Below are positions 3,945-31,261 of a stretch of 40,125 nt of DNA, one piece after another. Each line of letters begins with the position of its first letter. Position 1 is the stretch's first letter. Source of the DNA: Paecilomyces variotii (Eukaryota); assembly GCA_004022145.1 (NCBI GenBank), contig RCNU01000025.1; one strand, written 5' to 3'. The translations under genes and the position numbers were made by a program. Under the pieces are notes generated by a model. It was not told the origin of the DNA. It searched no databases and worked only from the letters and a program-made list of their open reading frames with translations.

Positions 3945-3946
3945 TA

Positions 3947-4477: not shown

Positions 4478-4610
4478 GAGAGACAACTCTTTCTTGGCAA
4501 AAACGTTTTCTTGAAATATCTCGCCAATCAGAGGTACCAGGATCTCGTGAATTAGTTCATCTTAGTTGTAACTTTACGCGCTGCCATTTGATACCCATTT
4601 TGGGGGTGAA

Positions 4611-10581: not shown

Positions 10582-11034
10582 CCCCTCAGAATAGTGTAAT
10601 AGAGGAAGAAGGATAGCGCCTGCTAGGAGTGCAGTGCTAGGTCTACTGCACTCCCTTAATCCAAGCAAATATGTAAGCGGAGGCCAACAGCAGAAATAAT
10701 AAAGCAGGAGAGAGTAAGAGAGTAATGCGAAGGCGTAGTGTATATATATCTAGCGAGATAGATCCCGGATTGTGGGAGGATCCAGGGGGAGGATATTTGT
10801 TTTAGGTTAACTGATTTTGTTTATTGTGTTTGCATATCTGCATTTCCTTTATCTTATTTGCATTTGTTCAAGGATAACTAATAAGGAGCTCGCTCTATAA
10901 GCCCCATTAGACAGTTTATCTAGTAAGCAGGCGCCTACTCTATAGCTATCGGCAGGCCCGACAGCACTCCCGCATAGCAGCATATATTTAGAGTAAGCTA
11001 CATCGGGCAAATAAATTCATCATCATTATCATCA

Positions 11035-11048
11035 TTGAACACTTAATA
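11035..11048 (+). repeat. LINE target-site duplication, right copy
   Basis: Identical to 4464-4477. Confidence 0.92.
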
Positions 11049-11056
11049 ATGGCAGA

Positions 11057-12330
11057 CTACCCAATCTCTATATATGTTTCCCCGCTTTGGCTCAGAATAT
11101 CTGCCAGGAACGGTGTCTTGAGGATTTTCTTATTAGCCAACATTATCAATATCCCCTAAAACGTAATAAGCCAAAGCAAAAGAGTGATGCCTGATAGAAC
11201 CTAGCATAAATAAAACAAAGTTAGTGAAAATTTTGTTGAAGACAGTCCGCGTGGATAAGTAACTTGCCGTTGCAAAGATCTTAAAGAATGTTGACGACAG
11301 TTGATTACTGATCATTATTGTTGCCATAGCTAACGTACCTACCAAGTTCAGAATATGCCGCTTTAGTGCACGAAAAAAATTCAGAAAGGATATAATACCC
11401 GTCGGGAATGTTGTACTCCACCAATTGATGTTAAAAGAGACCTTTGCTCTGACTGCTGATGTTGCTGCAAAAAGGAACCACCACAACCCACACGCCCAGA
11501 AAGGGAGGCCGGCTACCAATCCTATCTTGGAGAAAATTTCCTCCGGACCTGGTGCCCTAGAAGGTCTGAGTCTCACGCTGCATAATGGATAAGCTTATAT
11601 GCATCCTACCAGGAGTAACTGATCACCAATTTCTCCCAATCTCATAAGCCTAAAAACACCATTAGTGAAATGTATCGTATGTATTTGGCTGTGAGTTGAG
11701 GTATACCCAAACGCGCCGTATCCAAATGGACCTGTTGGCAGAGCTAACGACACTATATGCTCCTTTGGTGGCATATTGGTCTCCAGTATGTTGTAGACAT
11801 AGAGTATAATGAAAGCCATGGCTGGAAGTATGCCAATACTCCACAGGATATAGCTTGTGATAGCCGTCTGAGTTATCTGACGTTCGCTCGAAAGGACTTC
11901 CGCAATAACCCCACCCGAACTTGCAGAGACAATCGGCGCAAGAAATGGAAATAACCCGCTCGTCGTCATGACCGATGACTTTATACCGTGGGTCCAGAGT
12001 CTGTGGTTGAGATGAGCAGAAAAATAAGAGGAAGCAAGAAGAATAAAAAATAGCCACTTACATATTGAAGGAGACAAGGCAGCAGACCAGAATCGAGAGA
12101 GAGACATCTACCCACCACAGAATCCAAGCTAGTTGAATCGGCCAGCAATTGCAGCTATGCGGTAGAGTGTCCAAGTATATACGGGAAACTCCGCACACTA
12201 TGAGGAATGGGCAATAGGAAAAGGCGAGAGCTATTGCAAGGTCATTTAAGTAGACATCGATTTCTATACTAATCATACCCAGATTCCTGGGTCAGTAATA
12301 TACTGTATGGCGTTGTAATGATGACGTATG
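11057..12330 (-). pseudogene. TDT/SLAC1-family (Ssu1/Mae1-like) anion/dicarboxylate transporter, multi-exon, premature stop in last exon; 5' end uncertain
   Basis: LAWILWWVDVSLS, APIVSASSGG, LALPTGPFGYGAFG, LPFWACGLWWFLFA, FNINWWSTTFPTG motifs; in-frame TAG at 11156-11158; natural stop 11057-11059; no clear start ATG found. Confidence 0.75.
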
Positions 12331-12488
12331 CGTCAAACTGTAACTACTGCAATTGCTATAATGTATTAAGGGTATATACACGCTGGCAACTTTTCAATCC
12401 CAGAGCCTGAACCTCAGAAACTCCGATATAATTACAAATGAAAAACTTTCTTGACCCCTCCGATACAGGCTTGGTCTATTACTACATA

Positions 12489-12562
12489 GCGCTTATTTGT
12501 CACTTCCATCACAACTTTCCAAATACAGTAACTAACTGGGCGTCCCGGTAAGCAGACCCACA
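12489..12562 (+). repeat. Dispersed non-coding element, copy 1 (core plus TCCCGGTAAGCAGACCCACA)
   Basis: GCGCTTATTTGTCACTTCCATCACAACTTTCCAAATACAGTAAC...TCCCGGTAAGCAGACCCACA; matches copies at 12984, 14563, 14638, 26308 (rc) and 28859. Confidence 0.9.
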
Positions 12563-12983
12563 ACGTAACGAGCTAACAGTGATGTTCCAAAAGTTTTTGA
12601 ACACCCCCTGTACGGCGTAACCTACAGTACTCCGTATATGAGAGTCGGTTCCTATTGGGCGACTGACTCCTAATGCAGCTGACTACTTCATGGCGCTAAC
12701 CCGAAGGGGAAGAGAGTCCTTACAACCTACAGCACCTGCCTTAACCGCTCTCACCGCCTGCTGGATACGCCGAACGGAGAAAATGCTGAAATTTCCAGCA
12801 CATCTATTGCAGGCGGTTTCTCGTAGAACTGAGACATTCAGCGAGTCAGAAAGGTTGTATGCGCCATATCAGTATATGTAGAAGGTATTCTGGTCAATAT
12901 ATATAAGCGTTCACACCGGCAGAAAGTTATGTAACCAAGGGGCGTGGGCAGAGTTTTAAACCTTAACTATGAAACATGACTGT

Positions 12984-13023
12984 GCGCTGATTTGTCACTT
13001 CTATCACAACTTTTCAAATACAG
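12984..13023 (+). repeat. Dispersed non-coding element, copy 2 (~160 bp upstream of merB ATG)
   Basis: GCGCTGATTTGTCACTTCTATCACAACTTTTCAAATACAG. Confidence 0.9.
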
Positions 13024-13074
13024 GACTTTCTCGTACTACTCGTAAAATCTGTTTGGCCAAATACGTGTAAAGGT

Positions 13075-13080
13075 TATAAA
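13075..13080 (+). promoter_or_regulatory. Candidate TATA box of merB
   Basis: TATAAA ~100 bp upstream of ATG 13182; it overlaps the upstream ATG 13080, arguing against that start. Confidence 0.4.
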
Positions 13081-13181
13081 TGTTCTGTTCTCGATGCGTC
13101 CGTTGCTGTCGACAAAAAAATTCAACTACACATTTCGTCCGTCCCTCACAGGCCTGCTATTCCCTAAGCCTGAATTCGCCA

Positions 13182-13820
13182 ATGTCACAGAAAAGCTCCG
13201 TCTCGCTTGAATATGAGCAACTTAAGAACCAGTTACTCGCCGACATGATGGCAATACCAGCATTCTTCCCGGCACTTCTCCGACTTGTTAGCAGAGGAGA
13301 ACCAGTACCCATTGCTGCTCTTGCTACCGAAGTACACATACCAATCCACGATATCGAACAGTGGCTCCGTCAACAGCCCGGGACCGACTGGGACAGCCAG
13401 GGACGGCTGCTCGGTTTCGGCCTTACCCAGCGCCCGACAAACCACCGATTTGTCCTGGATGGCCGGACCCTTTACACATTCTGTGCCGCAGACGCCTTGA
13501 TTTTTCCAGCCCTCCTTGGCCAAACCGCAAATGTTGAGTCCAGATGCGCGGATTCAGGCCAGCAGGTTCATGTCAAGGTTGAGCCAAATGCGGTTGTGTT
13601 TGCCGACCCTGGACAGACAATGGTTTCACACATTCCCGGGTCTCTGAGCAGTTGTGACATCAGAAGCACAGTATGTAACCACGGCGTTTTCTATGCCTCG
13701 GTTGAGTCTGCGCTTCACTGGCAAGAGAGACACCCCAACGGGGTGGTCCTTCCAGTTGAAGAGTTCTTCAATATTTGTTTAGCTGGATTGAAGAAGGCAG
13801 GCCTCATTCCATTTACGTGA
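13182..13820 (+). CDS. merB: Organomercurial (alkylmercury) lyase MerB, intronless, 212 aa
   Basis: Colinear with bacterial MerB: ALLRLVSRGEPV, DWDSQGRLLGFGLTQRPT.HRF.LDGRTLYTFCAADALIFPALLG.TA.VES.C, DIRSTVCNH..FYAS; C101/D104/C165 correspond to the MerB catalytic Cys96/Asp99/Cys159. Confidence 0.93.
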   Translation: MSQKSSVSLEYEQLKNQLLADMMAIPAFFPALLRLVSRGEPVPIAALATEVHIPIHDIEQWLRQQPGTDWDSQGRLLGFGLTQRPTNHRFVLDGRTLYTFCAADALIFPALLGQTANVESRCADSGQQVHVKVEPNAVVFADPGQTMVSHIPGSLSSCDIRSTVCNHGVFYASVESALHWQERHPNGVVLPVEEFFNICLAGLKKAGLIPFT

Positions 13821-14562
13821 AAGCCTGCGAAAGCGCAGTCATAACTATCTTATCCTGGGACGCGTCCTCTATTACTAAGTAGAGTCCCATCCGATCGAAT
13901 GGCACATATAACTATCTGAAGCTAAGTCGACTAAGTGTATAGCTACAATATCGGAATCTATGTAGGCTCCCAGCAATCCTAGTAAGCAGACACACACTTA
14001 TATTTAAAGTGGCAGTCAAGAAGCAGGAGTTCGCTTGACATGACATCTCAGATCCCCCGTATCATTACATAGCGACTGGACGCCTTTTTATACTCATGAC
14101 ACTGAAAGTTGTCGACTTCATTTGAGACTTTATCGGAACAAGTTCGTAATATTGGAGAAATTTTCTGAGGCTGGTTAAGGGTAGGGAAGCGTGTGTTGCA
14201 AATATTCTTGGGCGGCGGTGTAGCCTTCGCTTGTCCCATTCCTTATTTCTGAACTGGGTGTAGGGACGGGCAAGAACGATGCTGAAGACTTACCATAACC
14301 ATACAATCCATGATAACAGACTCTTATAGTAATGCATGTCCTTGACTGAATTTAGAATTTAGGGAAAGTGAATGACGAGGAGCAGAATAAGCCCAATCGA
14401 GGTCAATCAGTCAGTCCCTCGTACGGTTCGTTCCTTCTCCCACCAAGTGACTAGCTGAGGTTACCATAACGTTGCATCATCTATGCCTTCAGACTCGAAG
14501 TATTTGTGTGTCTATTTTGCTTTCCGTTAAATTCGTACTCCGTATAGTGCACAATGATGAAA

Positions 14563-14684
14563 CCAACCCTTATTTGTCACTTCTATCACAACCTTTTAAA
14601 TACAGTAACATCCCGGTAAGCAGACCCACATGCAAGGCCAACGCTTATTTGTCACTTCTATTACAACTTTTTAAATACAGTAAC
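14563..14684 (+). repeat. Dispersed non-coding element, copies 3 and 4 (tandem, 75-bp period)
   Basis: CCAACCCTTATTTGTCACTTCTATCACAACCTTTTAAATACAGTAAC at 14563 and CCAACGCTTATTTGTCACTTCTATTACAACTTTTTAAATACAGTAAC at 14638, separated by TCCCGGTAAGCAGACCCACA. Confidence 0.92.
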
Positions 14685-15084
14685 TCTGTACTCCGTACCG
14701 CTATGAACAAGGATTTATAGCCTATTATAGAGGTCAATCAGGATACGCTAGTGCCTTTGCAGAGCACTAAATCCAAAAATTTATAAATTTTATCCAAAAT
14801 TTTTTCGGCCGCTTAGGCTCTTAGCCAAGAAAAACTAATTCTAATTATGTTAATATAAGTGCTTATTTTCCCTTAAAAAGGGGCAAAGCACGGAATAACC
14901 GTGGTAATTTATGTAAGGGACGGTTATATGAGGATGGGACTACTGTTTAAATATGCAGTGTCTACTGCTTTAACTCGAACCAAACCTCATCTACCTTCTG
15001 ACTACGAACGGTCTTCACTGTATTTTGGCTTTCGTCCTTAACAACTCCATCTTTAACTGCCCGCGCCTTTTTCTTCGTGTTACT

Positions 15085-16202
15085 ATGTCGAATTTCGAAG
15101 GAGCTTATCCCGAATTGAGGGGAAAAGAGATGGCTCTCGGGAGTAGTCACCAGGGTATCTTGGAAGGCTCATCCCAGCAGAAACTGTCGACTTTACGTCC
15201 AGGAGAATTCGAGAAAATGTATATGTCGCCCGCGAACAAGGTGGATGGAAATTTGCGACCAATCTTTGGCAACCCCACTCCCCTGTGAGTCTTCATTCGA
15301 CTAGTACACTAGGGCTTCCATATTCTGATTCAAACAAAACCGATAGTGGCTTGTTGGGCATGAATCTCAGTGTGAGCCCTCTTTGCTGCCAGTTAATGGG
15401 ATGGGCTGGAGCTGGCGGTGGAGGTGCTGCAACGGTGTCAGTTTCATCCCACATGTTGAATAAATAGGCTTCAATTCTCTGTGGATCTGACCAGCTTGTT
15501 TGGACAGCGGCGCTTTCTATTTCATAGGTGGGCTCCTTATGACTCTGGCAGGCGTTCTAGAGTTCATTCTCGGCAACACCTTCACATTTGTCGTCTTCTG
15601 TTCTTTCGGTGCGTTGATTTACAAAGTATGTCATGACAATATGTCATCCGACTGATTTAAACAGGTGGCTTCTGGTTTTCTTTCGGGGCGACTCTGACCC
15701 CGGCATACAATGCGACAGGGGCGTATAACCCGTCAAATCCAATGAACCCGGAATTTCACTCATCATTTGGTATTATGTCTCCTGGTGTTATCAATGAGAA
15801 ATTCTAACAGATGATTTTCGACAGCTTTTTTTGCGTTATTCATGGGCTTCCTCTGTTTCGTATACCTTATCTGCAGCTTTCGGATCAACTGCGCCTGCAT
15901 GATAATGTTTCTCTCTATGACACTTGGCTTCTGCTTAATGGCAGGTACTTATTGGCTTATTGCGCGCGGAAACATGGATCTTGCTGAGAAAACGCAAGTT
16001 GTTAGTCCATCTCTTCACTAACCCCGTGTGTCAATTACTGACAACATGCAAGGTAACTGGAGCTTCGCTTTTTGTGACGAGCATGTCAGGCTGGTATTAT
16101 TTCGTGGCAGAGCTGTTCTCAAGCATTGGCATGATGTCAATCCCAGTGGGGGATCTCAGTCGTTTTGCTAAGCGTATCGGCCTTATGGAGAATAAAGACT
16201 AG
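15085..16202 (+). CDS. GPR1/FUN34/YaaH (SatP/AcpA-like) acetate/short-chain carboxylate channel, multi-exon
   Basis: FGNPTPLGLLG, LMGWAGAGGGGAA, LEFILGNTFTFVVFCSFG, GWYYF, IPVGDLS; GT-AG introns (first donor at 15285) keep the frame for the first three exons checked. Confidence 0.88.
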
Positions 16203-16782
16203 ATGGGAAGGCTTGGGCACGTTGGATATGGCTATGTGTGTAACAGATGTTTGATGTAGTGAGAGGTGAGGTTAACTAGGCAGTGGTGTGTTGATGCGGG
16301 TACTGTCGTCGATTTCGACTACATCAAATCATGGTCTTTAGTTTGGGTGAACTCGGCGAGGAAGCAAAGGGAATATGGGCTATTGTTTTTTAGTGCAAAA
16401 CGCCCTGGATAATAAGATCCCGGTTCACTTTCATCTCCTAGGTTGTTGCTTGACGGAATCAATGGAAGGTGGTTGATGAATTCTCAAACAACACAGCCTC
16501 CGAAACCACCACGCTTGCCCCCAGATCTATAAGGATCCGTCAATAATGCTTACACACAACAGAATTTCTATAAGGGTGGCATTGCGGGTAACATTGCACC
16601 TGGCCCGGTTAGACTCAACGTCGCTTTGGGTTATTCCCAAGAATTAGCCATATGATTGCTACTATTCGCTTGTATGCGGAGAAATGGAAAAGTTGCCAGA
16701 ACTGATTAGATCCGCTTATGAGTAGGTTGGTGAACACGTATATTTTCAGTATTGGCCGGTTAAAGAGAATGCAGAAAAGAAA

Positions 16783-17692
16783 CTATTTCACTGAAAGCCT
16801 CTGCTTGCATAAGGTTTTCTTCCTTGCCAGGGTGGCGAAGCCACCGCCGCGTATACATAACATGCTGAGACAGGACACGGTAGTTCTGCCGAAAAGTGAA
16901 TGCGGTGGTTCAGAAAAGAAGGTACTGTAGGCAAACATCAACATGGCAAAACCGCTTGTGTATAAAACTTCAGTCATAAAAGGCTCAGATGTCTCTTCAT
17001 CTTGGAATAATTTTATGCTTGCCAAACGGAAAGCGTTGAGAAGGACTGAATCATTTGAGCTCTTTCTCTCCTTTGAAAAAGGCTCGTTGACAGCAGGCAC
17101 TGTGTTTGATGATGTGCCTTGAGAAACGGCAGTTTCCCTAGCAGCTGAACAGTAAGAAGGAGACGATGTTGGGTCACCATTCTTCTTGCGATCCTCATAT
17201 GAAGTTGTGACAGGCACCGGTGTCCAGTTGAGGTCTTTCGATTTCAGTGTTCCACGAACTTGGAGCTCCCCAACACTGGCATGACAAGAAGTAGCCGTAG
17301 TTGACGAGATATCACAGGACAACAGAGCAGTTCTTCGTTACTAGAGTCAGATTGTTGTGCAACAAAGAAATAGCAGGGTTTACCTTTCCTTGTTGACGGC
17401 GCTTATTAGTTGAAAAGAATCCGGCGCGGAGATTGCAGTCATAGTGTTCTGCCTAGTTTTGGGATTTGCTAATTCTCCAGTTTCCATAAAGGTTACCAGG
17501 TAAGTTCTCGTGTTGTTCTCCTTCTATGACTTAGTTGAGACTCATATCCTTTGAACGGGAAATAGAAAATACCTCACTCAGGATCCCTGCTTGCAACTTC
17601 TGATCATGAATCCCGGGCAAAAGAAGATCCACTTCCGGAAATGCGCATATGAACGGAGAAAAGGCTAGGATTATGTAGAGAAATGAACGCAT
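16783..17692 (-). CDS. Hypothetical secreted Ser/Thr-rich protein (exon structure and intactness uncertain)
   Basis: Signal-peptide-like MRSFLYIILAFSPFICAFP at 17692; downstream S/T-rich ORF 16783..17322 with a hydrophobic patch. Confidence 0.4.
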
Positions 17693-18553
17693 ATTTGGTT
17701 GTGCTGAAGATAACGTCGAATGCTCTAGAAGAGGCGGACGCTTCATTGGCTCTTAAGTCTAAGAGGAAATGTTTTAATAAGTGGCTTCGAATAGCCACGT
17801 GTGCAAGAGAAACTTATCATTCATGTTCCGCAGACGAAATAGTATGTTGAGGCTAAGATAGTCAGCTTGTTTTTCCAGAAGCAAGCCGAGGGAATTAATT
17901 ACGCCTTCGGTAAGAGATCTAAACGTTGGAGAGGATAAACAACTGGTAAACGGTCTTGAAGACTGTTTTCGATAATTAGTACCTTTGTGTTATGAGGCAC
18001 AAAGTTCTGAAAAGTCTAAACGAAATTATTTAGCTGTTGGTCAACTGACAATGTGGCAAGCTCTCGACATGTCGGGTCCTGAAAAAGGGTCACTGGTGCT
18101 GTTAACGAATCAGTTTTCGAACACGTCAAGAAAGGCTTACTGTACAGTTCACTATTGACAAGCTGATCCCATCATTTTCCTTAACCATGAAGGATCCAAG
18201 TCATTATTTAGGCCATAATTTTCTGCCTCCGAAGGCAGATTAACATCCCAAGGTGTCCGCACGACTAATCTGGTGCCCACCTAGTTTATCATACATTCCA
18301 GGACATTAAACTCCAGAAACTATTGGCTTCTTCTGTTTTATCATACATAACGGAAAAGTCCATTTGCAGCAATAACCCTGGCTTATGTAGCGTACCCGGG
18401 CCAAATTCCGTACGAAATACTCAACGGACACATCCACACAGCATGATACAGAACATCCACCGTCATCATTACCACTAGATATTCACGGACATGCTTCCCT
18501 TCTTATCACCATCCCCCAATCTTTCTCTGTTTATGAAGGTGTGACAAAGTGTT

Positions 18554-19089
18554 CTATTTTGCTTCAAGCATTACATGTTTCACTTGCCGACTCTTCTCCT
18601 TGACAAAGGGTCCGAAATTCCGTACGGCTTCCTCGTCGAAGAACCCCCAGGCAATGTGCTCATGCGACACAGTAACGGGAACCTTAGCACCAAGCTGCGC
18701 AACTGATGTGTAATAAACCATCCGCAAGCCCTTGAGCTTGAATGTTCTTCTGTATACAAGCGGAAAAACGGCTTCCGGTGAAACAACTACGCCAATTTCC
18801 TCTTTCGTCTCACGCAAAGCAGTGTACTTCATGGTGGCCTCTTTACCAAGCTCATATCCACCTCCCGGCCCCTCCCAGCTCTCACCCCATGATCCGTAGC
18901 GTCGACGTTGAATGAGAAGGGCCTGTTGATTGGATGAATCGAATGGGTCTTGGCGAAGAATGATGAAGCCAGCGCTGAACCGGTCGATGTCGGGTTCTCT
19001 TTTTGAAGAGCAGGCACAGGTATGTCGACGTCTTCAAGCCTCAGCAAAACGGGCTCAGCAGGTGGCTTGTTGGGCAGCACAGATCTCAT
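18554..19089 (-). pseudogene. NUDIX hydrolase with one frameshift near 18990
   Basis: Frame upstream of ATG 18832 reads DRFSAGFIIL..ALLIQRRRYGSWGESWEGPGGGYELGKEATMKYTALRETKEEIGV (Nudix box) then SHEHIAWGF; N-terminus MRSVLPNKPP..QKENP lies in another frame. Confidence 0.78.
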
Positions 19090-19686
19090 TGTCTCAAACT
19101 CACGAGTGGTCGGGAGAGAACCTTTTTGACTTGGATGATAGATACTTGAGAGAGCTCCGAATGGTTCTCGGAAATCTCCTCACGGCTTCCCTTTATATAC
19201 GACGTATCTGTGTGACTCATTCGTATAGAGCAATGACGTGGCTGGGGGAGAGGGGATAATTGAGCTGGAATTGCATTTTTCAGTAACTGAAGGGCCTGTG
19301 ATCTACCATATCCAGCATTCCTATGTCCTATGGTCTTCCATTGGACCCGCAAAGCTATCGTGCTTCCTGACCCACAGCTCGGCCCAGTGGATCTAGACCA
19401 AAGACATGAAGTTGAAGATGTGATGGCTGATCATCGACCGCATTAGCGGTATTTTACGGTGGCGCTGGAAAATGGCACAATCAGCTCTATTCGAGGCTGG
19501 CGGGCGGGGTGAGTGGATACCAGAAGACGTAAAGTAATTCTTAGTCTCATTCTCTCAGCCGGGATATCCGTATTGAGCAACGCGGGAGATAGCACAGCGT
19601 GACTTGTGCTGGAACCCAGGATGATCCCAATATGAATTACGATCCGCCGAATATCTCCCATGAGCTTGGAGCCATTAAATCTCTAA

Positions 19687-20249
19687 GCAGGTATTGTCAT
19701 CCGACCGTGTATCACGCTGACCAAAAAGATAAACTTGACTCATTGCAACTGTTCTAAAGTGCGATTCGATGATGCACTAGGGGTGGTCTCAGGCGGCATC
19801 CGGTTGGCCTTCGGTCTCTGAGCTGGGTTCTGAAAATTACACGTGTCCGCAATTTTCCGCCCTCTCAGTCGATGACCAACTACAGTTCCTGTCCTGGCTG
19901 TTTGAGGGTGCCGTATCTCATTGCGCTCCCGCGCCGAGCACAAATGACACCTTTGCATCAAGATACATATCGAATCAGGATGAAGACAGGACACCTACGT
20001 CCAGCAACTCAAGCACAAGCGGCGAAACAGCCGATGCAGAACATACACGTTCCTCAAGAGAAGGCCTACCATGGTCCGTGGAAGAGGATCGCCTACTGGT
20101 GAAGCTCAAGGAGGAACAAAACCTCGCTTGGTCGGAAGTGATTAAGCAATTTTGGTCAAGAATTCCCCGGGAGGAGTAACGGCTCCATACATGTGTACTG
20201 GAGCACAACGCTTAGGAAAAAACGGCTATCTTTAGCGAAAGACTCATAG
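19687..20249 (+). pseudogene. Myb/SANT-like domain protein, frameshifted in the T-run at 20150-20153; 5' end uncertain
   Basis: SVDDQLQFLSWLFEGA ... GLPWSVEEDRLLVKLKEEQNLAWSEVIKQF / GQEFPGRSNGSIHVYWSTTLRKK*; missed by the ORF track. Confidence 0.72.
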
Positions 20250-20569
20250 GGAATTGCTATCGGTTTGCTGATGCTGATGTAACTTAAGAAGTGTGCATTC
20301 CGTTTATGTTTACTGTGACCGTAACCACAACGACCCCTGACATTGGCCAGTGTCGGCTATCTCGCTGTTTCGCATACACCGGCCGATGCTTCGTTATGAC
20401 CGTAAGGTGTTCTGCGGCCGCGTCATAACCAATGGAGAACGAATGCCGGCCCTTGGAGGTTATTCTATTACTCAACATGTTCAAGACGCATTATCCTTGT
20501 GACCTCATCTCTTGTCCATTGTTGACTGCCTAAACAGCGGCGAAGGCTTATTCTTCACATGGAGTCTTC

Positions 20570-20781
20570 CTAGCAAAAGTCGTCGAAAATCCAGTTTTCG
20601 TGGATTCTTGTTTTCTCCTCTTCGGTTTCAGCAGCATACAAGCCTGGAATTGTTCATCTGCTTTGGACTGTGCGCGTTCCAGTCGTAGACATTCCGTCAA
20701 TTCGTCATCTGAAATAGATATTGGACAAGGTGTTCTCGCATCACGAGTCAAGTCCGTCCACTTCCTAGACAGTGTAATCAA
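20570..20781 (-). pseudogene. C-terminal remnant of a second APH-like phosphotransferase
   Basis: KWTDL..TPCPISISDDELTECL..QSKADEQ and, in another frame, EEEKTRIHENWIFDDF, typical of fungal APH-family C-termini. Confidence 0.5.
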
Positions 20782-20838
20782 ATTTCTCTTGATATGGTGG
20801 TTCTTTCTACTTGTCTGCTTCTGGGAGACCAGCCTGTT

Positions 20839-22252
20839 CTAATTGTATATTCCGATCACTTGTTGGAGTTGATGATCATTTTGGTAGCACTTCATGGCCT
20901 CTGGCTTCCAGGTCTCCCAATGGAAATCATCAGTGATGCCCATAGCTCCCAGAAGTCCGGCAAAGAGCCCAAGGAATCCTTTCCAATCAGTGAGGTCGTA
21001 GCCGCAACAAAATCGGAATCTGTGGATGAGCCGGCCATTCCTGACAATCGTTGCGAGATCCGGATGCCCTTTTGCTTCAAGGCACTTCGCAAAGAACACT
21101 TCGTCTTCACCGATAGAATTTTCGCCCGCATAAAAATCAGCAACGGGGAGCAGGACAATCGGTGAATTAAATGCTCCTGACTTAGAATCCGTATGCGCCC
21201 ACTCCCAGTCGATGATACCGGTGATATTAAACTCATCGTCGACAAGTATTTGGTCTCCCTTCTCGTTCGCATGCTTCAAGTAGAACTTTCCATCGTCAAG
21301 ATGACTTCGAGAGCAGGCTTCCGGGACTTTGTCCAAGAGAAACCGATGAATCAAAAACGCATCGACTGCTCGATCGACGTACGACTCCTGTCGAATGATC
21401 AAATCCAAAATTAATTGGATATGTGCGCTAAAGTACTCTTTAGTAGAGAAGAAGGGGCCGAGCGCTTTCATCTGGGAACCATGGTACTCTGTCAAGGACT
21501 CTCGAGCAAAGGGTCCAATATCATGAGATCCAGGATGGTGCATAGAACCCGTCATAGCGAAAGGATGAGCATACAGCTCTATGTAGATGTCCGCAAGCTG
21601 ACTTGTCACCTTTCTTCTTTGCTCAGGAGTGGCAAGAGACCAGCGCAAGGAACGTCCAGGAAGCTTCTCCATTAGAATATATCCAACGCCAACAGGGTTC
21701 GGTTCACAGAAATTGAAGTCAAAAACTTTCGGAGCTGGGACTTTAGTTTCACTAAGAAACTGCAGGGTTGAGACCTCGCTGCGCAGAATGTAATCTCGCA
21801 GCTCCGCTGGCGGAGAAGTGGCGTTGGACCTTCGAATACGCGCCAGCCAAGTGATTCCATCATCAAATAATATCTCGATATGATAATTCATCCCCCCCAT
21901 AACTGAGCTTCGTGTTGATCTATCATATTGAAGATCGTGTGGTATGGAACAAGGGAGTCCTCCCCGAAGAGCTGAGGCTCGAGAAATGAGCGCAGAAATA
22001 TCGATTTTATCAACAAGTTTGGTGATCTCATCTTGTTCGGCTTTCCTGGCGGCGGGGTCGTATTCAGCTTCTTCCTGTCCATAGAAATCAGCATGGCCCA
22101 TGACACCTTTATTTTTGACTTACCTCCCATCTTGGACAGGTGTGGTAACTTGACTCCAGATGTTTCGCACAAAGATGACGATTACATAGAACGCATTCTC
22201 CGTATGTCCGAACAGCGGCTTTGTTGCAGTTTTCGATGTCACACAACCACAT
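20839..22252 (-). CDS. Cys/His zinc-finger plus APH (aminoglycoside phosphotransferase-like kinase) protein, 2 exons, 454 aa; catalytic Asp replaced by Asn
   Basis: Exon 1 22252-22124 (MWLCDIENC..ECVLCNRHLCAKHL..YHTCPRWE), 49-bp GTAAGT..CAG intron 22123-22075, exon 2 with MGGMNYH, WLARIR, SEVSTLQFL, YILMEKLPG, HANEKGDQILV, GIIDWE. Confidence 0.85.
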
Positions 22253-22454
22253 CGTCAGTTGCCAATCTTGTCAACCTCTCAAGTAGACTACAGTAGCAGA
22301 AAAGGCGGCCGCGTCTGCTATTTATGTGTTCAGCCCTTACCAGATATATCGCGTGAATTTTGTTGTGTCTGGTGCGGACGTGGAACTAAAATCATGAACA
22401 CACCGCCAATTTGATACGTGGCGTCTGCGCAGAGTTCCAAGATCCCTGACTTCT

Positions 22455-22981
22455 ATGGGGCAACAGCTCGACGATGTGCGGGTCGTTAGCCAGGATGAAC
22501 GGACTCAACACCTTGACCTTACCAAAAAACCAGCACATGAGGTCTTGAATCAAGAGCCGCAGAATTCTGACACAGGAAGCAGGTCTTTTGCGCCCGATGC
22601 CAGACCTCCATCCCCCTCACATGATTTGCGTACGAGCGCCGAATCTGCACCTCAGCCGATGCCAGATTTGAATCGGCCATACATGGCAAAAACTGGCTGT
22701 TTTACCTGCGGTCGTAGAAGAAAAACCTGCGACAAGAAACAGCCGTCATGTACGTAACTATTTTTTCACGCTGAGTGGACACCTGTGTCTCCTGGTAAGT
22801 ATGCCTCGCTGACAGATAACTCCAGGTGGGGTGTGTGGAAGGTAGACCATGTGAGGGCTATAAGCAATCAGCGATTCGGCGGATGCCCAGAGCTTCGAAG
22901 TTCCCTGAGCAAAACTCGGATATTCATGCTCAATCATCGCACCCAAGACCTCAAATACGCGATCAATTTATTGCAATTCAC
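22455..22981 (+). pseudogene. Degenerate Zn(II)2Cys6 transcription factor fragment truncated by a LINE
   Basis: KTGCFTCGRRRKTCDKKQPSC, intron, then PCEGY out of frame; sequence switches to LINE RT at ~22982. Confidence 0.65.
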
Positions 22982-25542
22982 GGGGAAAGGGTAAGCCGGT
23001 GGTATCCTTGCTGAGGCTGGATGTGTCAGGAGCATATGATAATGTATCCCACGAACGATTACTCCATAACCTCAGAAAACGGCGACTGGCCAACTCGTGC
23101 CCTGGGTAAAGGCCTTTCTCTCAAACCGAAGCACGACAATCCGGATACCCGAGGGCAAATCAGACCCCTTCCCGACACCAACCGGCATTCCCCAAGGATC
23201 GCCAATTTCACCTATCCTCTACCTAATCTACAACACAAATCTTATCAAAATCCACGGGAATGAAGTGACTAGCAACGGCTGGGTAAATAACGCCTGCTTT
23301 ATAGCTAAGGGAGATAGCAAGCGGGAGACCATCAGGAAACTCAGATTGGCTTGCTAAAAGGCGGACCAATGGGCCAAAACCTATGCCTCTGTATTTAATC
23401 TGAAGAAGTATGCGCTTATACACTTTGTGAACACCCAAGAGGTCGATTTGTAATACACACCGCTATCTCTCTAAAGATATATAGTGGCCGCAATCTGAAC
23501 AGCTGAACATTATTTGGGATACTGGCTAAACCCTGAGCTAGAATTTAATTATCACAGGGAAAAGGCAACTGTCAAGGCAGACATGTCTCTCTAAGCGTTA
23601 CGGAGCCTAATAGGTTCAATATAGGGAGCCTCTATTTCAGCTATATATAGAATCTACCAAGCAGTAGTTGTCCCCCAAATACTCTTTAGGGTATTAGCCT
23701 AGTACTAACCAATGGTAATTAGCAAGACGAAGGCACGCACAATTAGTTAACCTTTCATAACTATCTAGAAGTAGGCAGCGTGCCTAATTAGTAGAGTGTT
23801 TAGAATAATAGCAGCGGAAGCTCTGAATATTAAATTATACCTACCTCCTATTATAATCTATATAAACCGGCTTATAAAAGAAATAGCTGTGTAGTTATAA
23901 ACAGGACTAACTTTTATTATTCCCCCTATAATGCTATAAAGTCAACCTATAGATAAGAGAGACTGGTCTGGATAGATACTGATAGAGGTATAAGCCTAGA
24001 AGATAGGCAGATATCTTATTAATCTCTTAGATATTTTAGCGAGCTGCTGGGAGAGTTAAAAGGTATTTATTTAAGCGCTATGGCAAGCGCTACTAAAGGT
24101 AATTATCGAAGATAGAGAGATAGCAATATATAATTAGACTAGATCTTAGCCAAAGATTTAAGCAAAAGACCCTTAATACTATATACCAATAGAAGCAGAA
24201 TTAAAAGAAGGGTCGGAGCGGCAGCGATTATTAGCCTTAAAGATTAATATACTCACAGCTAGATAGGCGATAATAATATATCTACTATATATGCTGCCGA
24301 GCTTTACAGCATTAAGATAGCACTTATATTATTCTTAGAGAGCACAGAATCGTGGGCTATATGGGGGAAAAAAGGGCTTGTCATCTTCACAGATAGCTAG
24401 GCGGCATTAAAGGTACTCCGCCAGCCGCGAATGCTATCCGGACAGGTCTATCTAGCAGGTTGTCTAGACCTTATATACCAACTCGGTACAAAAGGCATTC
24501 CGACAGAGCTTAGGTAGATTCTAGCTCATCAAGGAGTAATTAGTAATAAGCTTACAGATTAATATGCAAAAGAAGCTGCGCAGGAGCCCTAAGGACTAGA
24601 GAACCCTTATAATCGATATATCCACCTAGCTACTACAGCTAAACGCTAAATTCACAGCAAGGCGAAGATTGAGTGGGAGAGGGCGTGGGCGAAGGAGAGG
24701 ACTAGCCGACTAATGAAATGCCTAATTGAGGCACCAATAAAAAAGGCGCTGGTATACTGGTTAGGGCTATATAAGGCAACATCGTTAATTCTAATATAAC
24801 TTCGAACTGGGAAAATCAGTCTTAGTGCATATCTGAGTCGCATTAACTAATGCAACTTACCCCGGTGCGACTGCGACCTAGGCAACCAGATAGTGACTTA
24901 TGTTTTACTCAATTACCCGCTGCACCAGGACAAGCGCAATTAGATAAGAAGCGCTCTTTCCAACCAAGGAATCGCTCTCCGCCGGGATAAGATTTTGACC
25001 CGGCCAGAGGCTCGCATAATTATGGCCGAATTCATGGTTAAAACCAGCCTCCTAGGCTAGTTTCAGGTGGTCGATCCAACTACTCTATATGTAGAAGAGG
25101 GTGATAAGAAAGATTAACCCTTCAGAACAGTGTGACAGAAGGAGAAGGATAGTGCCTAAAAGGACTGTAGTGCCAGGTCCACTATAATCCCTTAATTAAA
25201 GCAAACGCGCGAGTGGCAGCCGATAGTCTGGGTGGCTGTGCAGAAGTAGGTGCGAGGGAGGTAATTATGGGGAAGGTGATCCTGGGTTGTAGCAAGAACC
25301 AGGGGGAATGTTCGTTTTGAATTTCCTACTTGTTTATGGTGTTTGCATATCTGCGTTTCTTTTATCTGCATATATTTGAGGACGACCAATCAGGAGCTCG
25401 CTCCGCGAGCCTCATGAAACAGTCGTTCAGTGGGCTGGCAACCACTTTAAAGCTGTCGGCAGGCCGGATAGCACTCCCGTATAGCAGCATAGATTAGAGC
25501 GAGCTACATCGGGCAAATGAATTCATCATCATCATCATCATC
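22982..25542 (+). mobile_element. 5'-truncated Tad1-like LINE (RT to 3' end), diverged relative of 4478-11034, RIP-damaged
   Basis: LDVSGAYDNVSH, PWVKAFLSNRST, GIPQGSPISPILYL; ORF2 stop at 25115-25117; same 3' end GCTACATCGGGCAAAT.AATT followed by (CAT)6; no TSD found. Confidence 0.92.
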
Positions 25543-26307
25543 TTGCTGGCAGGACGGCAGTTGTCAGATTTTAAAATCACAGGTTTTGGGGAGCTGCAGT
25601 ACAGACTCACAGGGTGCGTATTACCCGAAGGTAGAGCCGCCTCACTTTTGAACGAATTCTTGCCGCTCTTCCGGACAGAGTTTGGTTGTCAGTATTTTAC
25701 GCATTAGGTCTGTACGTACGAGTATACGCAACCCAGTTGTGATTCGGAACTACAGTCAGCGAGGCTTTGATTGGATGGGATGCTGAGGAATTACAGGTTC
25801 AGCCTTCGCAGAGATTGCCTCCTGATCGCCACTTGGTTCCAAGGAACATCTGGAACTAGTCGGTCGTAATTCATGAAAGGTTCCCCTCGAGTAGACGCAC
25901 GCCTCGCTCATACCGCTATGGCCCTTGTGTACAGTGGCGCCACAGAAGTCTGCGACCACCCCTTTGACCGCCAGCATCTCCGCCTCCCTATTATAGCCTA
26001 CCTAAAGGTAGTCGCGCGTCGCGTTCTACATTACGTTATTGAAGATAATTTTTTGTGCAGCAGAATTAATGGCAGAAAAAAGCCGTCAATCAGGGGGTGG
26101 TCGCAGACTTTTGCGTCGCCACTGTAGGTCCGCTTGCTACGTACGACAGTACAGTACACTAATTAGGGCAGGGACGAGTACTAGGCAAATTGACAAAGTC
26201 GTGCCATAGAACTGAAGACAAGTAATAGGCCGCTTTAATTCGACCCTGCAAGGTTGTGGGGGTTCCAGGCTGGCTTTGCTAGCGAGTTGCGCACGAGGGA
26301 GTGCTCA

Positions 26308-26342
26308 GAAAAGTTGTGATAGAAGTGACCAATGAGCGTGGG
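26308..26342 (-). repeat. Dispersed non-coding element, copy 5 (inverted)
   Basis: Reverse complement reads CCCACGCTCATTGGTCACTTCTATCACAACTTTTC. Confidence 0.85.
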
Positions 26343-26584
26343 TTTTATCAATGTGCACGATGCGAGTTTAATGGAACACTACAGTTGTGGAAAGTTACTC
26401 CAGTATCCAAAGGGAGAAATCTCTTCATTGGTGATTATTTCGGAGCAGAGACTTGTGGCCAGCCCATAGGAGGATGCACCGTCGTTAGCCGCAATGTCAA
26501 GTATTTAAGCCCTGGATTCTCGAAAGTTACTCCAACCTACCTTGCATGACATTCATGGTACTCTGCCGTATCTTGACCACCGAC

Positions 26585-26860
26585 ATGTGTTGCGAAATCT
26601 TCATCGTTATTATTGCTCTTGTAGCTGCTGCTCGTCGGAGCCACGCGCGAAAGAACCAAGAGGTGGCGCAAGAGACGCTTACAAAGGACACTGCTTCCGA
26701 AACCACACTTGCCCCCAGATCTACCAATGACAGCGACACGACGAGGGGTCTTTCAGAAAAGTCTCCCAAGAGCGCAGCCCCGGATGTAGAGAAGCCATGC
26801 TGGTCGTTCTGTGACCCCTGGCGCAAGTTCAAGCGCGCCAAGCCTTGTCTTGAATATTGA
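26585..26860 (+). CDS. Small hypothetical protein (MCC paralogue A, 91 aa)
   Basis: Starts MCC, hydrophobic N-terminus; shares ASET.TLA, G.SEK..K, SF.D.W.KFKR with 28191..28511(-). Confidence 0.6.
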   Translation: MCCEIFIVIIALVAAARRSHARKNQEVAQETLTKDTASETTLAPRSTNDSDTTRGLSEKSPKSAAPDVEKPCWSFCDPWRKFKRAKPCLEY

Positions 26861-27239
26861 AGGTGTCCAAGCCGACGCGAGGCCGGAGTTTCGGTGCCTG
26901 GCCGACTGTCTGACTTCAAAGGCGCCTCCGTACTGTCGTCAATGGATGAACCGTCGCTGAAATCAAGTCGAGGCCATTCTGGGAGATGATGCAGTTTATC
27001 GTCAGCGTCATCTACTTGCTGGCATGCACGGCCTGTGCTTTGGTGGGAGCCTCTAAGCCACTTACAAGTGGCTCCGTTTCACCAAGACTGGACCAAGAGC
27101 CGCTCCTACTGCTGTATGGTACTTCATTTGCTCGTCTTTTCTCCGCAATGGATTTCAGCTATAGCTGCCCCTGCCCCGCCAGATAGTAAAGTCACAATCG
27201 AATCCTCCACCAAAGCTATTCAAGACTCCTTTCAGTATT

Positions 27240-27538
27240 AGGGCTGGACATTTATTTTTTGGTATCTCTCCCGAACGGAGAACTAACTCTGGCCAGTTAA
27301 TAGAGGTTCGTTGAAATTTTATATCAGGTAAGAACCCACATCCTTGCTTCACAGTGTCTAAGGTAGCTTGGTCTAACGTTGCTGAGTATGCAAACCAAGG
27401 AACATTCTTTCCTAACAATACGCGCAACGGCTGCCTTCGTGCATATTCCGTCCGGAAAGCACGGCCCTAATGCACAACCGAATGTGCCTTATCAACTGCA
27501 ACAAGGCGGCGACGTTCACTGAACTCTGGATGATAGGC
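27240..27538 (-). pseudogene. RecQ-like DEAH helicase fragment, RIP-damaged
   Basis: LVAVDKAHSVVH*GRAFRTEY..LRVLLGKNVPWFAYSATLD (DEAH to DKAH, W to stop, both TpG>TpA). Confidence 0.75.
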
Positions 27539-28190
27539 AGGTGGCAAAGATTGCAGCCATCTGAACCAACGAAATTAGGATCAGACAAGAGCTCTCGTCG
27601 TCACAAATAATTTGATCAACTTCTTGGAGCCGTGCGCCCCTGGTTATCGAGATATTTCAAGAAATCGGTTTTGCCGAGAAAGAGATTGTTTTCCGACGAT
27701 AGCAATATTTGAGGAGCTATCCTCGACTTTCTTCAAGGTCTTTGGTATAGCAAGTGCTTCGCAACCAAATAAACCCTTGAAATCAACAGTTGCTTATGTC
27801 CGCTTTACAAATTCCCGATCCTATCATGCATCACGCTTTTGCCCCGGTTTATCGTAACTATCGGAACAGTTAAAAATAATAGTCAACAAGAAAACACTCA
27901 AGACGACATTTATGGCAGATATGCTGGGTTCAGTGACCAATTCATGTGCCTGGAATGTGCATGACTCTTTAGGGCTCTCATCAATCTTTGGTAGAACTAT
28001 CCATAGCAATATTTCACCACAATTTCTAGGATTCATGACATTGTAGATCTCTTCTCCATTGCCAATATAGTCAAACCGTGGAAACTCAAATGCAGGCAAT
28101 CAGCAACTCGAGCCTGTATCCCGACGCAGGTCCAACTGCAGACCAAGCTAGCTACAACTTGGTGGACTTGGATAGGCGAGCAAGTCGCGA

Positions 28191-28511
28191 TCAACGCAAG
28201 TACTGGCGCTTGAATTTATACCATCGGTCTCCGAACGAACGACGTGATTTCTGCCCCCCATCGACTGTGGACATCTTGTAGACCTTTTCCGAAAAGCCCT
28301 GTTTGGAGTCTCTTCCTTTGGAAGACAGGGAAGCCAGGGTGGATGTCTCGGAGGCAGGTCCATCCAACATGTTCTTGCCTTTGAGCGGAGCGAGCTTTTG
28401 TCTTTCGCGGTACCTGCGGACAGCAGTATCGAGACTGGTCTCACCAGGTTTACTCCAACCCGCAGGACGAGGCACCACAACGTACATCGAGGCGTGCATG
28501 CCACAGCACAT
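28191..28511 (-). CDS. Small hypothetical protein (MCC paralogue B, 106 aa)
   Basis: Starts MCC; shares motifs with 26585..26860(+). Confidence 0.6.
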   Translation of the reverse strand: MCCGMHASMYVVVPRPAGWSKPGETSLDTAVRRYRERQKLAPLKGKNMLDGPASETSTLASLSSKGRDSKQGFSEKVYKMSTVDGGQKSRRSFGDRWYKFKRQYLR

Positions 28512-28835
28512 GTTAGGCGGTCGATGGTGCGTGCCGAAATGTGAGGTTGCACCAGATTAAGGGTGGATTCTTGTTGAGGACGAGGGGCACAGAATCGGAC
28601 AGTGGTGAATAGAAGTAGACTTGAGGGATTGCAAATGTAGGAGGGTGACTTTCGTGCACCTGGGGTGCTTCAATAAATATCGTAGTTACCTACGATGACA
28701 AAGGTTAAGAGTAAAGTTGATGAGTCGAAGTTAGCCACGGCCCCCTCCCCCGCCCAGCGTGTATTGATTATCTCAGATGGTTGATGAATTCCCGTTCACC
28801 CGCGCTACGGGGCGGAAAGGTTGTTTGTGGGAGCA

Positions 28836-28893
28836 GGTAGGCAGACCCGCAACTGGCGCCAACGCTTATTCGTCACTTCTATCACAACTTTTC
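28836..28893 (+). repeat. Dispersed non-coding element, copy 6 (between paralogue B and the ada-like gene)
   Basis: GGTAGGCAGACCCGCAACTGGCGCCAACGCTTATTCGTCACTTCTATCACAACTTTTC matches 14615-14672 over ~58 bp. Confidence 0.9.
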
Positions 28894-29411
28894 TTACCAA
28901 TATCTGTGTCCACCCACACCTCTTTCCGTGGTGGCTGCGCCACATCCTGATCCCAAAAATCCTGGTCACACTTTACCAAAAATCAAGTGACCTGGGGGAG
29001 GCGAACATGGGGTTCTTCACTAAATCTGCGGTCATGTGATGCTTCTTCTGTATTAGTCATCAACACGACCTTTCCTTTTTCGTTACAGTGCGCTCAGACC
29101 ACAGCCAATGATGAGGCCGAATTCTGCCAAATTCTGCCACGCTAACCCGATGGGTTGCTTCATCAGTCTGTCAGCATCGCTGGAAAAAGTAGGCGGTGGA
29201 CGGCCAAATTCACCGCTTTTTGGGGGGCGGCTGGGGAAACTGAGTTAAGTCCGAGTGCTGTTTGACCACTCCTTCAGTTCGTCCTGTTTGACCATTACGC
29301 AGCAAATCTGAACCCCATATATCCACTATATCTTGACTATCCTACCTTGAATATATAAATCACATACCGGGATAATTTTCTCAAGAGCATTTTCTAAAAA
29401 CACAGTGCGAT

Positions 29412-30125
29412 ATGGAACCATCTCCACCACTACCGCTCTTGCCTCCACAACCGACGTCCATGGCGGCGGCTTCCGCAGCATCACGCTGGAAGGCGGTAGC
29501 CGCGCGAGATGCGTCCAACAACACCTTTGTCTACGCCGTCCGCTCGACACGCATCTACTGTCGCCCATCATGCCCGGCGCGCCTCGCGCGGCGGGCAAAC
29601 GTCGAATTTTTCGACACGCCCGCACAGGCCGAGTCGGCCGGGTACCGGGCATGCAAGCGTTGTCAGTTTGACGTCGACGTGAAAGATGATCCACGGAGTC
29701 GACTGGTCCAGCAGGCACGTGACACCATTGCTGCAGCTGTCCTTTCATCATCGCCATCGGGCCGTCGAAGACCTAGACTGCAGGAGCTCGCAGCCGAGGC
29801 GAATTTGACGCCGAGTCACTTTCATCGTGTGTTCAAGAAGATCGCCGGGGTGACGCCACTCCAGTATGCACGGGCCGTGCGAGATACAGCGAGAGCTAGC
29901 AAAGAGGCGGATAATGTGGACATTACGGGAGAGAGTGATGCCTTGTTTCTGCAAGATGCGGACGGTTTAAATCACTGGGTCGATCTTTGCCAGGCACAGC
30001 TAGACGATACGATCATACCGGACAACGATTTCACCATGGACGATCTTATTGACTGGAATCACTTCGATGACATGATAATAGCTGTAAAGGAATCTGGTGC
30101 TCTGGGTCTGGAGTTGGGCACATGA
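29412..30125 (+). CDS. Ada-like (AdaA/methylphosphotriester methyltransferase-type) Zn-binding plus AraC-HTH regulator, intronless, 237 aa
   Basis: RWKAVAARD..FVYAVRSTRIYCRPSCPAR...NVEFF...AESAGYRACKRC (four Zn cysteines); LQELAAEANLTPSHFHRVFKKIAGVTPLQYAR HTH; acidic C-terminal tail. Confidence 0.9.
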   Translation: MEPSPPLPLLPPQPTSMAAASAASRWKAVAARDASNNTFVYAVRSTRIYCRPSCPARLARRANVEFFDTPAQAESAGYRACKRCQFDVDVKDDPRSRLVQQARDTIAAAVLSSSPSGRRRPRLQELAAEANLTPSHFHRVFKKIAGVTPLQYARAVRDTARASKEADNVDITGESDALFLQDADGLNHWVDLCQAQLDDTIIPDNDFTMDDLIDWNHFDDMIIAVKESGALGLELGT

Positions 30126-30414
30126 TTACGCTCGGTGGGCGAAGGCACTATAGTATGGCTTGAGTGCATGACGTGAAAACGGGCAGCGAGTGACGCTGCG
30201 CCGTCATCAGCAACTTGTTATTAATGTTATTAGCATAGTCTGTTTAGCTATCACAAGGCCGAAATAGGCAGTGGCCAGGCATAGACTTGATTTCGAGGTG
30301 TCGGTCAGTTACTAGTGGAGCATGCACTTTCGAAGTCGCGCGCCATGAGACTAGCCCGACGGCAAATATGGCTCTTGGCTATGAAAGGCCGTGACAAGAG
30401 CGGCTAGATTCATT

Positions 30415-31261
30415 TTAGGAAGTAGTGCGTTCTATGTCGACCCAGACCCCTGGACTACTTATAGGAACCCCCAATACTTCTCGTAAAAAACTCGCAAGAC
30501 AGCCATTAAGCTCCAAAATCTCCTTACTCTGGGGCACGTAATGGCCGCCGCAAAACTCATAAATCCATGGATACTTACACCGCCGGGCAAGCTTCTTTTT
30601 CTGAAGAGGGGAAATTGTTGCATCCGCGACGCCGATGGTGTGGAAAATTGGGGTCACAATCTTTGGCGAATAGAAAGATTCGTAGCACCTGTTTTCGAGT
30701 TTGAATCCACTGAGGCATATAGCGAATCTTAATTGCGGGTGCGTCGTCTGAGTAAGACCAGTCAGCCGTAAGATTTATATGGACGCAAAATAAGTGCAGG
30801 GAAGATGATGGTACCCTCAATGTAATGCCATAAATTTTTCCTCTTTTTTCCAACAATGACGCGATGATGGCAGTTATAGCGGCACCAGAGGAAAATCCAA
30901 CTATGCCGATAAAAGGACCGTTTTGTTCGAGTGTATCAAGGATATGCTCGATAGACCTCTGCAAGCCTCTTATCTCATCGTGCTTAGGTTCACCATAGCC
31001 CGAAACCCGCTGATAACTAAAGTTGTCATCATCGGGCTAGACTGGCCATATAGCGGACAGAAATTTGAATTCGAACTCCATCTCGTTTGACAGAGTGCGA
31101 AATATTTTTCGCACATACCTAGTTTTTGGCCTAAAAATGTCTGCAGACTGACCATGTCCTAAAGTCTTATATTAGCACTCACGCAAAAGCGATTCATTAG
31201 GGATTGGACCAAACTCAGCTATACCATGAAGCATCAGCATTTTCTGAGGCTTGGCGGTCAT
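30415..31261 (-). pseudogene. FSH1/DUF341 serine hydrolase, 3 exons, one premature TAG at 31037-31039
   Basis: MLMLHG/HGQSA, GPFIGIVGFSSGAA, TPIFHTIGVADATI, FCGGHYVP (Ser-Asp-His triad positions). Confidence 0.8.

Follow-up and report, generated by a model that had tools for sequence, protein, structure and literature searches.

Repeated upstream sites in co-regulated fungal gene clusters are well known, and upstream activating sequences (UAS) of this kind are familiar from the yeast GAL genes, with their Gal4 sites, and from the arsenic-resistance promoter of ACR2-ACR3, with its Yap8 site. Short sites of a different nature are the core sites of the tyrosine recombinases (lox, FRT and dif types), which consist of inverted arms of about 9-13 nt around a spacer of 6-8 nt. 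Also relevant to the locus described here are the Ada homologue Afmpt of Aspergillus fumigatus, which is reported as an alkylation-responsive activator inducing its own expression (PMC3439912), the bacterial mer operator, a symmetrical 7-4-7 dyad bound by MerR (PMC11049809), and the Starship Hephaestus, whose ends carry a terminal repeat and an adjacent ACAACTAG motif (10.1101/2020.03.06.981548). In this work, we analysed a 40,125-nucleotide stretch of the genome of Paecilomyces variotii (NCBI GenBank assembly GCA_004022145.1, contig RCNU01000025.1; the whole stretch is hereafter the window), in which a non-coding element with a 34-nt core occurs six times beside genes that include an organomercurial lyase (merB) and an Ada-like regulator. 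The reading that we favour, and hold to be rather probable, is that this element acts, independently of its orientation, as an upstream activating module and co-regulates some of the genes of a horizontally spreading cluster. This particular element is not in the literature searched: no account of it was found in the accessible parts of the papers on Starships with merB, on promoter motifs of Starship cargo and on fungal organomercurial lyases, and two 14-nt literals of the core had no match in the text of the literature searched.

Six copies of a conserved core upstream of transcripts

The original prediction, made from the sequence alone, had reported six core copies in the window, and all of them are present, two in a corrected register (12486 and 12981 instead of 12489 and 12984). 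With up to three mismatches, a 34-nt consensus matches at 14563, 14638 and 28859 on the plus strand and at 26309 on the minus strand, where no match is expected (100 shuffles). The copies at 12490 and 12985 were added by a repeat finder (family D4), which reported inverted pairs tying them to the minus-strand copy; both lack the CCAAC prefix, hence the common register 12486-12519 and 12981-13014. The six copies, whose core is also called block M1, are the following:

12486-12519 (+), core copy A
12981-13014 (+), core copy B
14563-14596 (+), core copy C1
14638-14671 (+), core copy C2
26309-26342 (-), core copy D
28859-28892 (+), core copy E

A position weight matrix (PWM) built from these copies in the 34-nt register scores them at 48-55 bits, and the runner-up in the 40,125 bp of the window reaches only 8.7 bits, so that the number of copies in the window is exactly six, without any degenerate ones. 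Twenty-three of the 34 columns are invariant among the six, and all 15 pairs of copies agree at 26-32 of 34 positions (76-94%). The core is conserved far better than its flanks: in 28 flank comparisons, which exclude the overlapping pair C1-C2, two scored better than all 200 shuffles, and six more were equalled by at most 13 shuffles. Neither Rfam, with no match in 11000-31000, nor ARAGORN, with no tRNA, indicates a known structured RNA.

The position of the copies relative to transcripts was determined by placing three RNA runs (X15, X16 and X17) and one DNA run (X5, from organism B) on 11000-30500. X15 and X16 are RNA, as shown by contigs that skip canonical introns (at least 15 GT..AG or CT..AC joints), and the 5' ends of RNA contigs were taken as proxies for transcript starts. 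Non-coverage by contigs is weak evidence and was used only where two or three RNA runs end almost together while the DNA run goes on; the listed contigs fully explain the depth in every bin that holds a copy. On this basis the cores lie 118-409 bp upstream of RNA-contig 5' ends:

12198, 12162 and 12251 (one adapter-tagged end at 12189), 5' ends of TDT RNA, 235-324 bp from core A
13132 (X15 and X16) and 13145 (X17), 5' end of merB RNA, 118-131 bp from core B
About 14906-14927, start of the GPR1/FUN34 transcript as estimated from depth bins, about 235-256 bp from core C2
26566 (X15), start of the MCC1 RNA contig, 224 bp from core D
28719 (X15), end of the MCC2 RNA contig, 140 bp from core E
29272 (adapter-tagged) and 29301, 5' ends of Ada-like RNA, 380-409 bp from core E

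The copies are therefore upstream, largely untranscribed DNA. None of the six lies under an RNA contig of X15, five (A, B, C1, C2 and E) are free of such cover in X17, and B, C1 and C2 are free in X16; by bin arithmetic, the locus of C1 and C2 is devoid of RNA contigs in all three runs. A TATAAAT sequence is found at about 13074, between core B and the 5' end of merB RNA. In relation to the nearest gene, the core is in forward orientation for merB, GPR1/FUN34 and the Ada-like gene and reversed for TDT, MCC1 and MCC2, with copy E sitting between the divergent genes MCC2 and Ada-like.

The element is also retained in a diverged relative. The only locus returned by an MCC-alignment search of metagenome contigs, a 1365-bp sequence termed L001, is 91-93% identical to positions 27676-28835 of the window and has an intact MCC2 (608-925), with 96 of 106 residues identical. 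Its homology to the window ends sharply at 28835/28836, which is the edge of an accessory block (M3, described below) beside core E. Beyond this break, a copy of the element occurs at 206-239 of L001 (27.8 bits), keeping 21 of the 23 invariant columns and standing 361 bp from the MCC2 start codon, as against 348 bp in the window. This copy is inverted with respect to MCC2 in comparison with the window orientation and belongs to the type of copy A (M1-M2-M3-like), being identical to A at 33 of 36 positions and to E at 23 of 27. Farther out, L001 is unrelated to the Ada-like side of the window and resembles window positions 1760-1856 (73% identity). That a lineage with a rebuilt MCC2 promoter still has the element at the same distance argues for a function and for independence of orientation.

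Accessory blocks, neighbouring genes and the wider region

The second block noticed in the original prediction, here M3 (GGTAAGCAGACCCACA), is confirmed at 12547, 14615 and 28836, and a weak one stands at 13981 (four matches against 0.02 expected). Further blocks are M2 (AAATACAGTAAC), with three exact copies within the loci and a partial one after copy B, M4 (GTACTCCGTA), with three exact copies, and M5 (GTGCACAATGATGAAACC), with two. The flanks had been described as otherwise unrelated; most of them indeed show no alignment beyond patchy islands, but locus C can be aligned over about 135 bp with the locus of copy A and over about 120 bp with that of D, and A and D share a further distal block (M6) some 40-65 bp from the core, in addition to the short blocks. 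The remaining homology among the loci consists of short islands split by indels. Conserved islands amid indels and decay are what a duplicated ancestral promoter segment would be expected to look like, if selection had kept only the functional sites. The loci are composed as follows:

12486-12636 (+), locus A: M1; M2 at 12521-12532; M3 at 12547-12562; a decayed second unit at 12563-12626; M4 at 12627-12636
12981-13023 (+), locus B: M1; partial M2 at 13016-13023; an M4-like stretch
14535-14697 (+), locus C, the fullest array, upstream of the GPR1/FUN34 gene: order M4-M5-M1-M2-M3-M1-M2-M4, with M4 at 14535-14544, M5 at 14547-14564, M2 at 14598-14609, M3 at 14615-14630, M2 at 14673-14684 and M4 at 14688-14697
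26309-26342 (-), core of locus D (M5-M1): M5 at 26341-26358; the distal block common with A at about 26414-26445
28836-28892 (+), locus E (M3-M1): M3 at 28836-28851, a 7-nt spacer, core at 28859-28892
13975-13996 (+), weak M3-like block in the 3' region of merB, with 18 of 21 positions as in the locus C block

The 75-bp two-unit array of locus C was not reported by Tandem Repeats Finder. The M3-like block at 13975 is a modest match (z 3.1, equalled by 5 of 300 shuffles). We considered, and dropped, an insertion of merB between M2 and M3 of a module, copy B being a complete M1-M2-M4-like unit that resembles C2.

The gene identities previously assigned hold, with Pfam matches for TDT/SLAC1, merB, NUDIX, the Ada zinc-binding and AraC helix-turn-helix (HTH) domains and the exons of the GPR1/FUN34 gene. 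The genes considered are:

11136-12291 (-), TDT/SLAC1-family transporter, several exons (Pfam and RNA joints)
13182-13820 (+), merB, alkylmercury lyase, single exon (MerB E 1.9e-31, HTH_15 E 2e-08)
15085-16202 (+), GPR1/FUN34/YaaH-family channel, six exons with RNA joints (Pfam on the exons, E 2.9e-07)
26585-26860 (+), MCC1, small Cys-Cys membrane-like protein of no known family
28191-28511 (-), MCC2, paralogue of MCC1
29412-30125 (+), Ada-like regulator: Zn(Cys)4 domain of the N-Ada methylphosphotriester type, one AraC-type HTH and an acidic C-terminal tail
NUDIX gene (-)
APH-like gene (-)
FSH1 hydrolase gene (-)

MCC1 and MCC2 are 34% identical (E 5e-9); the proteins start with Met-Cys-Cys, followed in MCC1 by a hydrophobic stretch, and a search limited to proteins of 50-160 residues, in a collection of 5.8 billion, returned only five relatives, none of them named. 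The Ada-like protein matches the structures of E. coli N-Ada (E 5e-23) with all four zinc-binding cysteines kept, and its C-terminal tail, acidic and hydrophobic, looks like a eukaryotic activation domain.

The TDT gene shows some peculiarities. Its Pfam match starts at position 108 of the 331 of the profile, the N-terminal part being missing or elsewhere. The window is 2 bp shorter at 12145 and at 29326 than X16, X17 and X5, and the gap at 12145 falls in the 5' part of the gene, so this TDT copy may have a frameshift or a truncated N-terminus. In all three RNA runs, one contig follows the TDT 5' end to 12147 and then continues into non-window sequence, a 30-nt loose end without any occurrence in the window. 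A second transcript or a paralogous locus probably shares the TDT 5' region and, if such a second TDT-like locus exists, a further copy of the element may lie there, outside the window. Remnants resembling the TDT C-terminus are found at 27637-27755, downstream of MCC1, and at 4483-4553, near the left end of the window. The distal block shared, in the same relative orientation, by D (upstream of MCC1 and a TDT remnant) and A (upstream of TDT) suggests an old segmental duplication.

As for the wider region, between 0.56 and 0.99 of the sampled words of 11000-16000 are present in runs carrying 10 different organism labels, and two lake-water metatranscriptomes contain about a third of them; in the lake-water metatranscriptome X17, transcripts of TDT, merB, NUDIX, MCC2 and the Ada-like gene are present. 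The shares of runs X19 and X20 are small (0.09 and 0.05), and these two runs do not enter into the evidence. A Starship setting is not established from the window, and the near-identical DNA under 10 organism labels is the sole support for it. Elsewhere in the window, a pogo/Tc5-type DNA transposon occupies 2068-3947, with terminal inverted repeats (TIRs) of 55 nt (96% complementary) and an open frame of 557 amino acids for a DDE_1 transposase. A retroelement fragment with a reverse transcriptase occurs in two direct copies about 14.5 kb apart (81% identity):

8415-8522 and 22982-23089, first pair of retroelement segments
10922-10988 and 25429-25495, second pair of retroelement segments

The window differs from organism B by 137 A>G and 144 T>C changes, and contig 25 of organism B, which spans the right-hand retroelement copy, has 265 differences; among the differences listed, all 35 A>G or T>C changes from 23157 on fall in 23157-23547. 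This pattern looks like repeat-induced point mutation (RIP) acting on the retroelement copy of the window after the lineages split. The stretch 33000-40125 is very AT-rich (GC 0.13-0.43, mostly below 0.3) and rich in low-complexity repeats, consistent with RIP-degraded repeats.

A candidate regulatory module and its alternatives

The original prediction had offered two readings, a shared promoter module and a recombinase site. The position of the copies, their occurrence in both orientations, the conservation of the core far above that of the flanks and the retention in L001 speak for the former, and the case for the latter is weak. As a promoter module, the 34-nt core would be a cis-regulatory upstream activating sequence that, together with the M2-M6 islands, forms a loose "billboard" promoter. 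A single ancestral promoter segment of about 150-200 bp may have been copied to positions before five or more transcription units of a single cluster, namely TDT, merB, the GPR1/FUN34 channel, MCC1 and the divergent pair MCC2/Ada-like, after which the surrounding DNA would have decayed and selection would have retained the factor-binding islands. The core, lying 120-400 bp upstream of the starts, would be recognised in either orientation by at least one sequence-specific transcription factor, which would switch the genes on together, probably under thiol-reactive or alkylating stress, for example by organomercurials. This kind of stress is suggested by the genes themselves, which encode an organomercurial lyase, two anion/small-acid channels and a sensor-regulator that works through cysteines. 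Expression levels cannot be ranked from RNA contigs, so that co-expression of these genes is a prediction.

Given a regulatory element, the binder might be the Ada-like protein of the cluster itself, regulating its own gene through copy E; this proposal is speculative, and we regard it as possible rather than probable. Its attraction is that the gene of this protein adjoins a copy and that the homologue in A. fumigatus, once alkylated, is an activator of transcription and induces itself. An alternative binder is a host factor of the AP-1/Yap1 type: the Yap1 response element documented in PMC8450079 is the reverse of TTTGTCA, a heptamer that stands in four of the six window copies and in L001.

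Several observations weigh against this interpretation. The Yap1-type heptamer is low in information (11 occurrences in the window against 4.75 expected) and is gone from copies D and E. Two consensus patterns of the E. coli-type Ada box are absent from the elements, and in the window they occur at about the expected frequency (8 against 9.1 and 2 against 1.6). The conserved core of 28-34 nt is far longer than the site of one ordinary fungal factor, as the original prediction had remarked. The element is missing from at least five genes that are expressed in this region (NUDIX, APH-like, FSH1 and two without a name) and thus does not mark the whole cluster. The exclusion of the copies from RNA is not absolute, since in X16 one contig crosses copy E to 28960 and copy A is probably covered, although only by a contig of depth 4.7 beside genes at 300-600. 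Finally, the copy in L001 agrees with E at only 24 of 34 positions, while the surrounding orthologous DNA is about 92% identical, which indicates that it was replaced rather than conserved in place.

Alternatively, the copies might be a functionless relic that looks conserved through recent duplication or through homogenisation by ectopic gene conversion. A duplication origin is in fact apparent from the extended, decaying homology between A and C (about 135 bp) and between C and D (about 120 bp), and the paralogous copies or remnants of TDT and MCC in the window make part of the multiplicity a matter of segmental duplication. We nonetheless consider a mere relic improbable: the flanks are saturated while the core remains 76-94% identical in every pair, conversion tracts limited to the same 30 nt or so in six copies are implausible, and the relative with a rearranged locus still has a copy at the same distance. 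A different origin of the repetition would be a small mobile cassette, a MITE-like (miniature inverted-repeat transposable element) "mobile promoter" of about 50-120 bp inserting near genes in either orientation. The module at the MCC2 promoter of L001, of another type (A-like, M1-M2-M3) and in opposite orientation, is what such a cassette could leave behind, as are the unrelated sequence beyond that module, the end of homology at its edge and the varied combinations in which the modules occur. Against mobility, the repeat finder detected neither TIRs nor target-site duplications around the copies in the window, as had been stated before, and the only inverted repeats involving copies run between copies. 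Furthermore, the copy number is low, with six in the window, and a degenerate 27-nt core pattern, which does not include the L001 variant, had no match in metagenome contigs or in prokaryote genomes, neither collection being fungal. In X5, DNA depth exceeds that of the listed contigs by about 13-17 units where a bin contains A or B and not at all at D or E, which likewise indicates a handful of copies. A mobile cassette is accordingly quite unlikely, and the same findings from the window and from X5 speak against a MITE, a solo long terminal repeat or an abundant repeat, which the original prediction had named among its refuting conditions.

The least likely of the functions considered is that of a site for recombination or capture, at which a tyrosine recombinase (a Starship captain or another) would assemble cargo. 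The single synteny break examined lies at a module edge (28835/28836), with the element just beyond the break in both lineages, and the region spreads horizontally, at least 0.56 of its sampled words being held by runs with 10 organism labels. The break falls outside the core, 23 nt from core E, and not in a spacer. The imperfect dyad TGTCA-N6-TCACA on which the prediction had based this geometry is present, but its 5-nt arms are complementary at only four of five positions and are equalled in 1701 of 5000 random 34-mers of the window (34%), so that it does not exceed what chance gives. Folding showed no tendency to a hairpin or cruciform in any of the six core copies (z from -1.1 to +1.5 against shuffles). 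Moreover, no recombinase, captain or integrase domain was found in the 38 reading-frame pieces, part of the frames of the window, that were scanned against Pfam, and the terminal inverted repeat of Hephaestus and the ACAACTAG motif have no match each in the window. The contigs of organism B on 11006-30500 have one loose end (14899), and none at a copy; the breaks that these contigs do show at copies A, B and C have a k-mer cause. A combined scheme, in which the modules mark junctions where cargo blocks (a gene with its proximal promoter) are joined, in either orientation, by site-directed recombination or capture, and in which the modules then supply regulated transcription, is just as improbable, and the break of L001 at the module edge is the sole observation that keeps such a junction reading alive. 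If it were true, it would bear on how cargo is assembled, and the junction modules, carried by an element that spreads horizontally, would be a eukaryotic counterpart of the attachment site and promoter of an integron.

The upstream activating module, if confirmed, would have a broader meaning. Transferred genes, especially merB and the Ada-type regulator of bacterial origin, need expression and control in each new fungal host. A cluster with its own regulator and a long element in front of transport and detoxification genes would be a portable regulon, in which regulation travels with the cargo, and this would help to explain an immediate function in many species with nearly identical copies.

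Comparison with known systems

Among the systems introduced above, the mer operator resembles the element in adjoining merB and in that M4 (GTACTCCGTA) overlaps one operator half-site, exactly at 14692-14698. Unlike the operator, no M4 site has the full dyad, and no MerR-type protein was seen; with up to three mismatches, the MerR dyad has no match at any M4 block or core. The window contains four matches to this dyad with three mismatches (18611, 20184, 25713 and 26138, against 0.65 expected), which are GTAC-rich near-palindromes, none at an element or beside merB. With the lox, FRT and dif sites the element has in common its shortness, its repetition and its non-coding place within a mobile region, and its sequence allows a weak dyad around a 6-nt spacer; it differs from them in having 5-nt arms with a mismatch instead of arms of 11-13 nt and no recombinase among the scanned neighbouring frames.

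The likeness to the Ada regulon, as known from E. coli Ada and from Afmpt (PMC3439912), lies in a regulator with an Ada-type Zn(Cys)4 domain and an AraC-type HTH and in a candidate site before its own gene. In contrast, E. coli-type Ada boxes are absent from the elements, and the neighbours are transporters and merB instead of repair genes of the alkyltransferase or AlkB type.

From the Gal4 and Yap8 sites of fungal regulons the element differs in the length of its invariant block, 28-34 nt as compared with 13-17 nt, and in the further conserved islands. Its binder is hypothetical, and it belongs to a horizontally mobile cluster in which some genes are of bacterial origin. The length of the invariant block, the location in a horizontally spreading cluster with bacterial-origin genes and the nearby Ada-type regulator are what is unusual in this locus. 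The overall arrangement is that of a fungal UAS regulon, with repeated, conserved sites in both orientations a few hundred base pairs upstream of several neighbouring genes, and with one copy upstream of a regulator gene in the same cluster.

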